NCBI GenBank assembly: GCA_963743305.1
Contig: CAVUPH010000014.1
Span: 464,746-528,745 of the forward strand
Length of the DNA stretch: 64,000 nt
Direction: 5' to 3'
Source: an uncultured delta proteobacterium
GTDB taxonomy: Bacteria > Desulfobacterota > RBG-13-43-22
Shown one piece after another: positions 10,504 to 14,863 of the stretch. The number at the start of each line of letters is the position of its first letter. Positions within the stretch are counted from its first letter, which is position 1. The translations under genes were made by a program, and so were the position numbers. Under the pieces are notes generated by a model. That model was not told the DNA's origin and did no database searches. It saw nothing but the letters and a program-made list of their open reading frames with translations.

Positions 10504-10679
10504 ATGGATAAGGACAACGACACCCACCTGAAGACCGTCGGCTACATCCTCTGGCTCTTTGGCTTTACCGGCGCGCATCGTTTTTATTTCGGCAAGCCGC
10601 TTTGGGATACTTGTATGACCTTTGGACCTTGAACGACCAAGTTCACGAAATCAACAACGCCCTGGCGCAAACCTATTGA
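10504..10679 (+). pseudogene. Internally deleted TM2-domain membrane protein gene
   Basis: Own translation: MDKDNDTHLKTVGYILWLFGFTGAHRFYFGKP (TM2 N-terminus) joined out of frame to LGYLYDLWTLNDQVHEINNALAQTY* (family C-terminus). Confidence 0.75.
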
Positions 10680-10730
10680 TTTTAAAGCTACGCCCCGACC
10701 GAATGGGCCTCGTTTTTCTGCTTAAGGGAT

Positions 10731-11381
10731 TTAAAAAAATCCAGGGGAAAAAGCTAGAAGGAATTGGCCGGCGTAATACAGGGGAAGCCCGATCAGGCGG
10801 TTGAAAAATGTCTTTCTAATGAATTGATCGCGGGCCACAAAAAGATCCGAAAGGTAAAACAGGATGGCCCCCCAGAAAAGCAAGGCCTTTCCCGTCCAGG
10901 GCAGGTCAGGACTTTCGAAAACCGCCCAGGCCCCGAAGACCATCAGCGTAATAACCGCCACGTAGGCCAGAACCGGAAGCTTCATGGCCCCCAGATGGGA
11001 CCAAAGCCAGCAACAGGTTCCCAAACTGATGGCGAGAACAAGAAAGTCCCCGGGAGAAAACCAGCCCTTGAAAGGGATCAGGAAAGTGAAGGCCAGGATA
11101 TAGAGCACATGGCCAAGCAGGAAAGCCACCAATCCTGCCCTAAACCACTTCAGCCCCGAAAAAGCTAAGCAAACATCCCCTACCAGGCAAAAGATTAACC
11201 CCAGTGTCAAAAATCGGGTGAATGATTCGTTGCCGCCCGGCTGAAGAAAAACCGGGATTACAAAAAGAAGGGACAGCAAGGACTTGGTCACGATTCGGCC
11301 AAAGGGTTGTCCCATTTTTTCATAATAAAGAAGGACGATCAGCAAAAGGACCCCTAAGCCCGGAATAAGAAGATACCCCAT
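10731..11381 (-). CDS. YhhN/lysoplasmalogenase-family membrane protein
   Basis: Hydrophobic; motifs GD-V-C-L, GLVAFLLGH, YLSD...ARDQF, YYAGQ. Confidence 0.85.
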   Translation of the reverse strand: MGYLLIPGLGVLLLIVLLYYEKMGQPFGRIVTKSLLSLLFVIPVFLQPGGNESFTRFLTLGLIFCLVGDVCLAFSGLKWFRAGLVAFLLGHVLYILAFTFLIPFKGWFSPGDFLVLAISLGTCCWLWSHLGAMKLPVLAYVAVITLMVFGAWAVFESPDLPWTGKALLFWGAILFYLSDLFVARDQFIRKTFFNRLIGLPLYYAGQFLLAFSPGFF

Positions 11382-11485
11382 ACTATCCTTTCAATTGATG
11401 CTCGCCGGTATTGGATTCAAAGGCCTAACCAATAATAGTAGTCAGCGTTTTGAAACAGCCAGGGCTTGGAGTCCGGCAAAGGGCA

Positions 11486-12376
11486 TTATAGTTCCTCCTC
11501 CAGATCCTCGATCACCAACCTGACGATCTCAGGCAGGTCTTTCAGGTCATGGGGCCGGATAAGGCGCCGGAAGATGACTTGCCGGGCAAGACTGGCGGAA
11601 TGCAGGAAGTGTTGCCGTTGGTTTATCCCGGCCTTTAGGGATCGAGGGGTATAGGAATAACGAAGCAAGGCGATAACCGCTTCCGGCCGGCTAACCGGCA
11701 ATAGTTCGATATCTTTGCCTTTTTCGAGAAGGTAAATGCGCTTCAGTGGAAGAGGCGCGACTGAAAACCCCTTGAGTACCCTGGGGGTAATCTTTTCTTC
11801 AAGAGGATTCCCAGGAGGAGAATTTTCCGGATCGAAACCCAGGGAGGCGGCTGTTTCCGAATAGAGTTTTAGTTGAGGAAAAGCCGGGCAGATCAGAGGG
11901 GCGGCTTCATCGGTCCGGATGACCAAGACGTCGTCGGAAATGAGGGGATATTTGTCGCTGAAGGCCGCCGCCATGGTGGACTTGCCTTCACCGGAATGAC
12001 CTAAAAAAACCGCCCCTTGGCCGTCGATAGCCACGGCGCTTCCATGCAAAACGAGGGAGCCCCGTAGAAAGGCCAGAGTCCCGAGCACATTGCCCAAGAG
12101 AAAAAGACGCAACGAACCTTCGTCTACCCCGGGGGCCGGATCAATGAGAATTTTCCGGCTTTCACGAATCAAAAAAGAGCCGATGCCGGCATAAGAAAAA
12201 TAGGCTTCCCCGTTTGTCACCCGTATGGTTGTTTCCGAAAACCGGTCCGGGGAGCCGGCTTCACCCGGCCGGGGGAAAAAAATATTCACATCATATTTAC
12301 CCGCACTCCCCTCAATCAGTTCAGGAAGTTGCAGCTCAGAACGGATGGCCAAGCCAAAGGCCTGGTAGTAATACAA
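11486..12376 (-). CDS. HPr-kinase-like RiPP serine kinase (PadeK/ThcoK-like)
   Basis: LHGSAV...GHSGEGKST Walker A, LISDD, PAFPQLKL; N-terminal YQAFGLAIRSE typical of lasso-cluster kinases; adjacent to precursors. Confidence 0.85.
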   Translation of the reverse strand: MYYYQAFGLAIRSELQLPELIEGSAGKYDVNIFFPRPGEAGSPDRFSETTIRVTNGEAYFSYAGIGSFLIRESRKILIDPAPGVDEGSLRLFLLGNVLGTLAFLRGSLVLHGSAVAIDGQGAVFLGHSGEGKSTMAAAFSDKYPLISDDVLVIRTDEAAPLICPAFPQLKLYSETAASLGFDPENSPPGNPLEEKITPRVLKGFSVAPLPLKRIYLLEKGKDIELLPVSRPEAVIALLRYSYTPRSLKAGINQRQHFLHSASLARQVIFRRLIRPHDLKDLPEIVRLVIEDLEEEL

Positions 12377-12417
12377 ATCTATTCCCTATTGTCCTCGGAT
12401 TATTTTGAGGGCGCGGT

Positions 12418-12573
12418 TCAGACTGGGCCGCTTGGTTGGATTTGCCCCAATTTAAAACCTTCCGGATTGATCAGGTTTTCCTCGGTAATCTTTTCCACCG
12501 ATCCGTGAACGACCAATTCAGGTTTCTGGTAGGGCTTCTTTTTCCTCTGGATCAGAGTCTCTTTCTCTTTCAT
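12418..12573 (-). CDS. Lasso-type RiPP precursor A2 (51 aa)
   Basis: MKEKETLIQRKKKPYQKPELVVHGSVEKITEENLINPEGFKLGQIQPSGPV; YxxPxL..G...T leader motif; AGGGAGG RBS before ATG at 12573. Confidence 0.85.
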   Translation of the reverse strand: MKEKETLIQRKKKPYQKPELVVHGSVEKITEENLINPEGFKLGQIQPSGPV

Positions 12574-12679
12574 CTTCCGCCCTCCCTGGTTTTTCGTAGT
12601 CATCCCGGAATAAGTCCTGGACTCGGGAAGCTCCGCTGACGAAACTCCAGGGCCTCCATGATTGGAAAAAGGGTCGGGG

Positions 12680-12832
12680 TTAAACGGTGCCGGATATAGA
12701 AGCGTTGGATTTAAAACCTTCTCGGTTGATCAAGCTTTGTTCGGTGATCTTTTCCACCGATCCGTGAACGACCAGTTCGGGTTTTTGGTACGGCTTCTTT
12801 TTCTTCTCGATCAGAATTTCTTTTTCTTTCAT
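12680..12832 (-). CDS. Lasso-type RiPP precursor A1 (50 aa; absent from the ORF track)
   Basis: Own translation: MKEKEILIEKKKKPYQKPELVVHGSVEKITEQSLINREGFKSNASISGTV*; same leader motif and RBS as A2. Confidence 0.85.
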   Translation of the reverse strand: MKEKEILIEKKKKPYQKPELVVHGSVEKITEQSLINREGFKSNASISGTV

Positions 12833-13011
12833 TTTCTACCCTCCCTTGTTTTTCGTAGTCATCCCGGAATAAGTCCTGGACTCGGGAAGCTCCGCCCAGC
12901 ACTGGAATCCGGCCTTCGCCAGAATAACGACCTGATTAAACCAGATAATACCCTGTTATCATGCTTCCTGGGTATCCGAAGCGGATATGGGGAAATTATT
13001 TGTATTGGAGA

Positions 13012-13450
13012 TTACCTTTTGCGAAACTCCAGATTCTCCAGGGTTGGAAAAGCGATATATGGTTCAACCGCTCCCCCGAGCAGCACCAGTCCTTGGGATT
13101 CCAGCCAGGCGTGGGCCTTCACCCGCTTTTCGGATTCGATCCTTTAATACCCCGATGCGTAGGTCCGTCTGATGTCCATGTCGAGCCAGAAAGACTTGCC
13201 CGGCAATGGCCCGCACCAGGCAGGTGGCCCGGGGCACATTTCTCCCGGCGGTATCCATCGCCCCCAGCAATCGATTCAGTGGAAATGAAGCCGGTCCTCG
13301 TTTGATCGGGGCCCGCTTGATCAGGGTCAGCATCGTCCGGAAAGGAAGAAGCCGCAAACCGCATTTCGCCACCCAGAGGAACAGCAACGCTTTTATCAAG
13401 AGTCCCTTTTCGGATAAAGGCAGCTTTAGAAAATTATGCACCTTTTTCAT
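13012..13450 (-). CDS. Lasso peptide B2 leader peptidase (transglutaminase-like), frameshifted near 13110-13140
   Basis: TCLVRAIAG...LRIGVLK in one frame; catalytic-His motif KAHAWLESQG...EFRKR* in a shifted frame ending at 13012. Confidence 0.85.
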
Positions 13451-13736
13451 CGGTACACTCGATCAGGCCGTTGGCCAAAAGGTTCTTTATTAATTCGACT
13501 AAATCCCGCTCACATTGATCGGGCTCCACCTGATATTCCTTGAGGATTTGATCCTTGAGGCTGCTTATTTTAATCGGTTTTTGAATTGAATTCCAGATAA
13601 AGGTTCCCAATGGGTTCATACCATAGTACACCCCGGCCTTCAGCGCCAGAATAACCGATTCCCCTCCTAAGTCGCACGAGACCTGGTCCTGAACAGCGAC
13701 TACGGTTTGAGATATCAAGAAATCATCCTGCGACAT
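13434..13736 (-). CDS. PqqD-family RiPP recognition element (lasso B1)
   Basis: QVSCDLGGESVIL...GVYYGMNPLGTFIW...EYQVEPDQCERD...GLIE. Confidence 0.92.
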   Translation of the reverse strand: MSQDDFLISQTVVAVQDQVSCDLGGESVILALKAGVYYGMNPLGTFIWNSIQKPIKISSLKDQILKEYQVEPDQCERDLVELIKNLLANGLIECTDEKGA

Positions 13737-13832
13737 GGCGACTCTCTATCAAGATGTAACCCTGCGTTTTCCAAAATAGCCCATTGATTATTATATAAAA
13801 AGGAACTGGCGGATGAACTCGTTGGCGAAACC

Positions 13833-14054
13833 TCAGGCTTTGTGCCGGTGAATGATCAGACCGTGGGTGGGGTCATAGAGGGAAACGCCCACCGTCACCC
13901 TATCCCCATCGATGACTCGTATTTTGTAGCGCTTCATGGCCCCGGACAACTTAGCCGTGATGACGCCCCCACTCTCCAGGGTAATGACGTAGTTTCCCCC
14001 TCCCGTGGTTTTGGTGACGCGACCCTCAACATGGACCAAATCGTCCTTGGACAA
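13833..14054 (-). CDS. infA: Translation initiation factor IF-1
   Basis: MSKDDLVHVEG...LSGAMKRYKIRVIDGDRVTV...YDPTHGLIIHR. Confidence 0.92.
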   Translation of the reverse strand: MSKDDLVHVEGRVTKTTGGGNYVITLESGGVITAKLSGAMKRYKIRVIDGDRVTVGVSLYDPTHGLIIHRHKA

Positions 14055-14163
14055 TATCCCTTCTCCTTATACCTTTTTGCCGGACAGCGGAAACAAAAAT
14101 ATCCCTTTCTCCCTGGGGAGAAGTAAAAAGATAAGTTTCGATATCGGTTACGAAAGCGGCTGG

Positions 14164-14508
14164 CTAATAGCGGCCGCGGGGTTTGGAAGTTCGTCCTCTT
14201 CCGCCGCCTCCCCCCGGCCGGCCCTGTCCTCCTTTATAACCGCCGCCATCCTCACGCGGCGTTTGCGGACGGGCTTCGGACACTGTCAGCGCGCGTCCGT
14301 CAAATTCTTTCCCGTTCATCTTTTCAATGGCGTCCGCGGCTTCGGCCTCCGAATTCATTTCCACAAAACCAAAACCCTTGCTGAGCCCGCTGTAGCGATC
14401 CGTTATGATTTTGGCGGATTGTACCGTCCCGAAAGGGGTGAAAAGATCCTTCAGCGATTCGTCCGTGACAGTGAAACGAAGATTCCCCACATATAATTTA
14501 TTACCCAT
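14164..14508 (-). CDS. RRM RNA-binding protein with Gly/Arg-rich tail
   Basis: RNP2 KLYVGNL and RNP1 KGFGFVEM. Confidence 0.93.
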   Translation of the reverse strand: MGNKLYVGNLRFTVTDESLKDLFTPFGTVQSAKIITDRYSGLSKGFGFVEMNSEAEAADAIEKMNGKEFDGRALTVSEARPQTPREDGGGYKGGQGRPGGGGGRGRTSKPRGRY

Positions 14509-14863
14509 ACACCCTCCTTATAGCAGTAGGTTCCAGTTAAAGAGGTCGTGGGCAAAAGGACCAGGAACTCTTTAAGGGCAGTAATATTTTGATTCTTTTA
14601 TAACAAATTTTTTTCTCCTAATCCAGTATTATCTTCGAGTCGGCGGTCTTTTGGGTGAGTTCTCCCTCCTGTCTATCTGGTCTGGCCGATCTTAAGTTAA
14701 TCATCCCCATCGACTTCCAAGTATATCCAATCCTCCAGCAATCAGCAAGCCGTTTACCGCCCTTCTCTTTTACCTGAATTAAATGGCGTACCAATTTCCG
14801 TAACTCTTCCTTCTCCCAATACCAAAATTTTGAAAAATTTCCAGCAACTATCTCTCTTTTTCC

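Follow-up and report, generated by a model that had tools for sequence, protein, structure and literature searches.

The 64-kb window analyzed here, which spans positions 464746-528745 of contig C14 in the genome of an uncultured delta proteobacterium (G000; 4.9 Mb, 90% complete), contains a lasso peptide-type locus of five co-oriented minus-strand genes between infA and a YhhN gene. The genes, in the order B1-B2-A1-A2-kinase, encode a PqqD-family recognition element for peptides that are made on ribosomes and modified after translation (RRE; B1), a leader peptidase (B2), two precursors (A1 and A2) and an HprK-like kinase (K). There is no lasso cyclase (C) in the window genome or in two congeners. 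Judged from sequence, we give roughly even weight to the reading that the locus is a cyclase-free cassette, which derives from a kinase-bearing lasso cluster with a split B gene, and which would make leader-cleaved, Ser-phosphorylated linear peptides. The gene set and its infA and YhhN boundaries had been proposed in an earlier description made from the letters of the DNA (below, the original prediction), and all five genes were confirmed by profile matches. The features are the following, with the two flanking genes last.

13434-13736, minus strand: B1, PqqD-family RRE, 100 aa (PF05402, NF033536)
13012-13450, in two frames (13064-13450 and 13012-13122), minus strand: B2, transglutaminase-like Cys leader peptidase (PF13471, NF033537)
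12680-12832, minus strand: A1, precursor, 50 aa (NF033521, NF033528, NF033534)
12418-12573, minus strand: A2, precursor, 51 aa from the MKEKE start (NF033521, NF033528, NF033534)
11486-12376, minus strand: K, HprK-like peptide kinase, 296 aa, TTG start, N-terminus MYYYQAFGL
13833-14054, minus strand: infA (IF-1), upstream flank, a housekeeping gene outside the system (PF01176)
10731-11381, minus strand: YhhN-family membrane protein, downstream flank (PF07947, E 6.9e-38)

Cyclase search and ancestry of the locus

The original prediction had seen no asparagine-synthetase-like gene in the 64 kb, and this agrees with the PF00733 search, which gave no match inside the window. Over the whole of G000, PF00733 gave four matches, on contigs C7, C18, C20 and C14 (at 341 kb), of which the one on C7 alone was full (315 bits), while the other three were weak and partial. 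The C7 protein begins with MCGICGF, which includes the glutaminase Cys2 of a true amidotransferase. It scored 516 bits with the asparagine synthase model TIGR01536 (cut-off 267) and 313 bits with the lasso cyclase model NF033535 (cut-off 525), and its gene adjoins a carbamoyltransferase-like gene and that of a large membrane protein. Hence, the genome-wide search returned a lone AsnB-type enzyme and no lasso cyclase. A custom cyclase hidden Markov model (HMM) was also used, built from 68 Asn-synthase-family sequences from kinase loci, with a lasso cyclase (from locus L015) and the AsnB of G000 as seeds. In the six frames of G000 this model found only the C7 AsnB, with the next match at 41 bits. 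A 26-bit cyclase-HMM match at C14:252.7 kb was rejected as a cyclase, because it is GlmS (GATase and SIS domains).

The congeners G002 and G003, which carry a syntenic locus and are 97% and 94% complete, each have one glutamine-hydrolysing Cys2 AsnB and nothing else above 33 bits; C is thus absent from these close relatives both beside the homologous locus and elsewhere. As a positive control, the same PF00733 search detected the lasso cyclase of a genome from the same phylum (G029) at 96 bits. G005, a relative without a close homologue of the window kinase, likewise has a full-length AsnB. The original prediction had left three explanations for the missing cyclase, and the first of them, a cyclase acting in trans, is unlikely, as neither PF00733 nor the custom HMM revealed a second Asn-synthase-family gene in G000, G002 or G003.

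To place the locus among its relatives, kinase loci (denoted by L-numbers, with L029 being the locus of G003, and L110 and L112 being metagenome contigs) were found with an 11-sequence kinase alignment, which yielded 80 loci from genome contigs. In 57 of the 80, the surrounding sequence contains an Asn-synthase-family gene, in most cases immediately next to B2 or K. Outside the clade of the window, the nearest kinases (38-44% identity; L033, L114, L115, L118, L121) are all located in B1-B2-C-A-K clusters, and the same order, followed by a methyltransferase-sized gene, was observed in G029. These canonical clusters, together with L015 from the same phylum as the window, carry an Asn-synthetase-type cyclase of 630-650 aa between B2 and the precursors, which the window does not have, while the order of the genes is otherwise the same. 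The leaders of some C-bearing neighbors are nearly identical to that of the window, such as YQTPELMVHGSVEKITE in L118.

A FastTree phylogeny of 125 kinases grouped the window, G003 (L029), L109-L111 and L112 in one clade (starred in the tree), while the sister clade contains the C-bearing L033, L114 and L121 plus the kinase-and-precursor locus L031/L116/L117. G002, G003 and L110 share the layout of the window. In L112, which has a kinase with 47% identity to that of the window, B2 ends ~200 nt before the kinase and one precursor lies between them, as far as these short contigs reach. The gene order and the kinase tree of the C-bearing neighbors make the B1-B2-A-A-K order of the window the ancestral order minus C, and the locus looks like a descendant of a B1-B2-C-A-K cluster from which C was lost. 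This is the second of the three explanations, and it is the one that the gene order and the tree favor for the origin of the locus. The persistence of the layout down to 47% kinase identity suggests that the loss of C predates a deep split.

In the sister clade, L031/L117, which are one 19-kb contig, have a kinase at about 10001 that is 44% identical to that of the window and has a precursor of the lasso type (..YGKPLLTAYGSVNVITRGDAETT..) as its neighbor. Over 7-10 kb to each side of this kinase, neither B1 nor B2 nor C was detected.

Precursors, enzymes and selection

The two precursors are tandem duplicates, which form a 187-nt direct repeat with 89% identity (12450-12636 and 12709-12895). 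Their leaders are the same and end with ...PYQKPELVVHGSVEKITE, which in both fits the YxxPxLxxxGxxxxxT-x spacing. The core of A1 is QSLINREGFKSNASISGTV and that of A2 is ENLINPEGFKLGQIQPSGPV; the sequence AGGGAGGG is located 6-7 nt upstream of the A1 ATG. Between A1 and A2 the 3′ end of B2 recurs as a 30-nt copy (83%; 12640-12669 versus 13022-13051), and the duplicated unit that gave rise to the second precursor therefore included the end of B2. Paralogues of the A2 type were also found in L110, L111 and L113, and both types persist in several members of the clade.

The precursor set of the clade contains 12 sequences. Position 1 of the core is Gln in 11 of them and Glu in one. Glu7 is present in ten cores and Glu8 in one, while one has no acidic residue at positions 7-9. 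A Ser three residues after the Thr (Thr+3) occurs in 9/12, and a Ser fourth from the C terminus in 11/12. The first ten core residues, QSLINREGFK, are identical in four A1-type orthologues, which have only synonymous differences there. This ring-like decapeptide is the best-conserved part of the core, while the tails vary. In L109 the first precursor copy lacks Glu7 (QISTNPGG..), and the second (at about 300-480) has an internal deletion, which removes ..SVEKITEQSLINR...

Selection on the cassette was estimated from the ratio of nonsynonymous to synonymous substitution rates (dN/dS) among G000, G002 and G003. The values were 0.26-0.31 for B1, 0.13-0.34 for B2, 0.19-0.28 for the kinase, 0.22-0.26 for the YhhN neighbor, and 0-0.09 for infA, the RRM protein and PPDK (0.01-0.05 for infA). 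For the leader and the first ten core residues dN/dS was 0.02-0.28, with dS up to 1.6, among nine close-clade precursors, which excludes L112_A and L109_A1 with their divergent cores. The cassette is thus constrained to the degree seen in ordinary accessory genes, and the precursors are constrained more strongly. The purifying selection on both the enzymes and the precursors suggests that the remainder of the cluster still works.

B1 matched PF05402 (PqqD, E 4.9e-16) and NF033536 (lasso_PqqD_Bac, 74 bits), and in a PDB search its best solved relative was the lasso PqqD chaperone 9x90_B (54.7 bits), followed by TbiB1 (38 bits) and 9x8z (23.2 bits). Its stop overlaps the start of B2 by 17 nt. 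The two pieces of B2 together cover positions 4-99 and 103-122 of the profile (PF13471/NF033537 lasso_biosyn_B2). The family's Cys (ATCLVRA) and His (AHAW) are conserved, while the third residue of the triad has no confident placement. G002, G003, L110 and L112 each have B2 in one frame, and so the need for a repaired B2, which the original prediction had anticipated, applies to the G000 assembly. The frameshift in G000 is either an error of the assembly or a lesion that arose recently in this strain; contigs from four public runs that were mapped to the window do not reach 13117-13210. No signal-peptidase family was found by Pfam in the eight proteins scanned, and B2 is the sole peptidase at the locus.

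The kinase contains the P-loop GHSGEGKST together with the invariant residues G131-K-S-T and D148-D149. Its match to Hpr_kinase_C was weak (E 2e-4, below the Pfam cut-off), as were those to HprK_rel_A/B, and a PDB search gave no match at E <= 0.01. There are 415 homologues of the kinase, most of them with precomputed PF27840/PF07475 assignments, and in the closest clusters (70-89% identity) 15 of 22 have the full length of 294-296 aa. One 151-nt metatranscriptome contig matches the kinase at 12046-12193 with one mismatch, which is too little to claim transcription.

Among the neighboring genes, the YhhN gene is syntenic in G002 and G003 and is probably not part of the system. The adjacency of the RRM gene and infA is conserved in four relatives of the family, in loci that were anchored on the RRM protein and end before the next genes. 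The scan of 10600-14700 gave 0 promoter-like sites (shuffle mean 2.8) and 10 terminator-like sites (shuffle mean 7.1). A 20-nt inverted repeat with 80% complementarity (12370-12389 and 12987-13006) brackets both precursor genes, with one arm just past the stop of B2 and the second where the kinase begins; it may be due to chance.

Gene calls and Pfam detected neither a PF14907 nucleotidyltransferase nor an exporter between infA and YhhN. A second cyclase-free module is located ~205 kb from the window (G000:C14:259358-262951, L178:9358-12951) and consists of a PqqD-TPR fusion (381 aa), a seemingly split PF14907 nucleotidyltransferase (207 and 116 aa) and a 393-aa HprK-like protein. This module might provide the nucleotidyltransferase missing from the window locus, or might belong to an unrelated system.

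Proposed pathway and its alternatives

In the pathway that we propose, B1 would bind the YxxPxL leader of A1 and A2, and the HprK-like kinase, aided by B1, would phosphorylate a precursor Ser. The candidate sites are the Ser at Thr+3, which is the position modified in Bsf and in linear polyphosphorylated peptides (LPPs; both described below), or the Ser fourth from the C terminus. B2, with the leader presented by B1, would then cleave after ...KIT-E or ...KIT, which would release a phosphorylated peptide of ~19-21 residues that is not lasso-threaded. The phosphorylation, the cleavage site, the linearity and any export or function of the product are inferred, while the sequences show the identities of the genes, that none of the three genomes has a cyclase, the descent from C-bearing clusters, and purifying selection that acts on the enzymes as well as the precursors. 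The third explanation in the original prediction, a cyclase-independent pathway to linear phosphorylated peptides, is thus the best supported of the three, with purifying selection and the precedent of LPPs (PMC13381572) on its side, while the chemistry stays conjectural.

Several observations weigh against this pathway. The cores still look lasso-competent, with Glu7/8 and the conserved decapeptide, as would be expected if a ring were still made, and A2 of the window has Asn in place of the Thr+3 Ser. The locus has no nucleotidyltransferase or exporter, unlike the LPP clusters and four of the eight other cyclase-less loci that were scanned. All three genomes are draft bins (90-97% complete), and if a cyclase gene lay on an unbinned replicon, it would escape detection in each of them. 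There are also lesions, which are the frameshift of B2 in G000, where one extra base near 13138-13142 splits the gene relative to both congeners, a frameshift of the kinase in G002 and the internal deletion in the L109 precursor.

Some of these points would fit an ordinary lasso pathway, in which a cyclase, either unassembled or too divergent, acts in trans to make phosphorylated lassos with a 7-residue Gln1-Glu7 ring. Such a pathway could account for the Glu7 of most clade cores and for the strongest constraint falling on the ring-like decapeptide; cyclase-bearing cyanobacterial clusters such as L043 and L049 likewise combine Gln1 with an acidic residue at position 8, and the genomes G043 and G044, which have cyclase-less loci, contain low-scoring Asn_synthase genes elsewhere. 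It is made unlikely by the lack of a second Asn-synthase-family gene in three genomes under a search that detected the G029 control, by the presence of such a gene close to most kinase loci, and by the properties of AsnB, because the only AsnB retains the glutaminase Cys2 and a full-length AsnB is also found in G005, without a close homologue of the kinase.

The lesions could instead mean that the locus is a decaying remnant, which became useless after the loss of C and is eroding, with the B2 frameshift as one lesion among others. The broken B2 in G000, the broken kinase in G002 and the L109 deletion are in agreement with decay, and so is the nucleotide identity between G000 and G002, which is 87.8% for the locus (10603-13800) and 95.7-96.8% for the 8-9-kb flanks. 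However, every gene has a dN/dS well under 1, with the lowest values in the precursors, the layout persists to 47% kinase identity with both precursor paralogues retained in several members, and most of the closest kinase clusters are full length. Single-base indels are frequent in these assemblies and hence weak evidence for decay, because the housekeeping PPDK is also frameshifted in the G002 and G003 assemblies relative to the window. We consider decay clearly unlikely.

A very unlikely alternative is that the peptides are capped or cyclized without an Asn-synthetase-type cyclase, either by an N-terminal pyroglutamate or by a Glu7 ring formed through another activating enzyme, such as a kinase acyl phosphate; the Gln or Glu at position 1 of all 12 cores, the conserved Glu7, and the Gln1 that heads the cores of the cyclase-less L106 (3/3 precursors) and L076 (1/3) agree with it, whereas Gln1 is also found in cyclase-bearing clusters, and no feature of the locus points to acyl-phosphate activity. 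HprK-like kinases are not known to make acyl phosphates. Gln1, or pyroglutamate, was also considered as a signature of cyclase loss, and it was dropped, because Gln1 also occurs in cyclase-bearing clusters. It is highly improbable that closure or capping of the Gln1...Glu7 decapeptide without an Asn-synthetase-type cyclase, for example by the kinase activating Glu7, would represent a second, unrelated lasso-like or lactam route; in its lesser form this proposal would make the locus a minimal RRE-B2-kinase member of a widespread undescribed family of B2-dependent linear phosphopeptides in bacteria and archaea.

Cyclase-less loci elsewhere and known systems

To see how the proposed linear-phosphopeptide cassette compares with other loci, the sequence around the 80 kinase loci from genome contigs was inspected. 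In 12 of them K, B1 and B2 are present without an Asn-synthase-family gene in the surrounding sequence, and six of these 12 have 10 kb on both sides (L029, L030, L058, L076, L094, L106). Pfam was assigned to 78 of the 114 open reading frames around ten such loci, with the small ones and all of L052 and L089 left out. No PF00733 was found by Pfam in the eight loci covered (L058, L066, L076, L084, L094, L095, L104, L106), while four of the eight (L066, L076, L094, L104) have PF14907 together with an ABC transporter. Elsewhere in genomes with cyclase-less loci, Asn_synthase genes were low-scoring in G043 and G044, where they are possible cyclases, and none was found in G045.

The loci from other phyla (L058, L066, L076, L084, L094, L104, L106) resemble the window in having the three-enzyme core without C and lasso-type leaders. 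They differ in that they belong to separate lineages of the kinase tree and have K first, in contrast to the B1-B2-A-A-K order of the window. On the kinase tree, at least 8 changes are required to account for the cyclase-less label, and this state thus arose repeatedly. Positions 7-9 are without an acidic residue in some of the other cyclase-less cores. The gammaproteobacterial core of L066 (6148-6417), GGRLPHHPIFNPWGHGHGHGHGHSGS, is His/Gly-rich and contains no acidic residue, and the haloarchaeal L076 (8531-9976) has three precursors, one of them with a run of ~20 Gly. The predicted L066 core and the predicted poly-Gly core of L076 cannot make a lasso ring.

Lasso pathways are defined and mined by the pair of B protease and C cyclase, and B-plus-C rules would miss this class. 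If the clade lost C while the RRE, the protease, the kinase and the precursor cores stayed under selection, then the module has an independent life. The five genes and the 19-20-residue cores also make a small, tractable set for probing the role of the peptide. Full-text searches gave no description of B2-type cyclase-less cassettes, although Supplementary Data 1-2 of PMC13381572, with its co-occurrence tables, was outside these searches and may list such clusters.

Among known systems, the phosphorylated lassos of the paeninodin/pseudomycoidin type are reportedly phosphorylated on a C-terminal Ser. Phosphorylated lasso clusters of this and of the Bsf type share with the window the split B1/B2, the HprK-like kinase and the YxxPxL leader. 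In the Bsf system of Bradymonas sediminis (PMC10368454), the kinase BsfK phosphorylates Ser3 of the precursor and acts before leader removal, B1 speeds both the kinase and B2, and the penultimate residue of the leader is Ile. Phosphorylated lasso clusters differ from the window in that they have the cyclase C and make threaded lassos, and most of them have an ABC exporter and a nucleotidyltransferase.

The LPPs of Bacillota are closer to the window in lacking a cyclase. As described by Popov et al. (Nat Commun 2026, PMC13381572), the lppA-K-B-S-D-N clusters encode an RRE and an HprK-like kinase together with a SipW-like leader peptidase, a nucleoside triphosphate (NTP) transferase and an exporter, and their linear product is multiply phosphorylated on core Ser3. 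Like these clusters, the window pairs an HprK-like kinase with a discrete RRE without a cyclase, and its precursors carry the YxxP leader seen in LPP precursors. When the junction of the window, Y..P.LV.HG.V.KIT..S, was compared by eye with the printed LPP motif, YxxPxVLxHQxIxFETxxS, the Y, the P, the aliphatic pair, the H, the I/V, the T and the S aligned. The LPP phosphorylation site is the Ser three residues after the Thr, where 9/12 precursors of the window clade have Ser and A2 of the window has Asn.

The LPPs also differ from the window in several respects. Their leader peptidase is the SipW-like LppS, while the window uses the lasso-type Cys protease B2, and their clusters have the NTP transferase (PF14907) and an MsbA-like exporter, neither of which is present at the window locus. 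The cores have 19-20 residues in the window and 45 in the LPP studied, and B1 of the window is nearer to the lasso B1 structure 9x90 than to 9x8z, the other PqqD-family entry. LPPs are called restricted to Bacillota in PMC13381572, and the host of the window is not a member of Bacillota. The best reading is that the window would encode a B2-dependent cousin of the LPPs in a minimal form, without the nucleotidyltransferase or the exporter, which would extend LPPs beyond Bacillota, to a B2 protease of the lasso type and to a minimal set of three enzymes.

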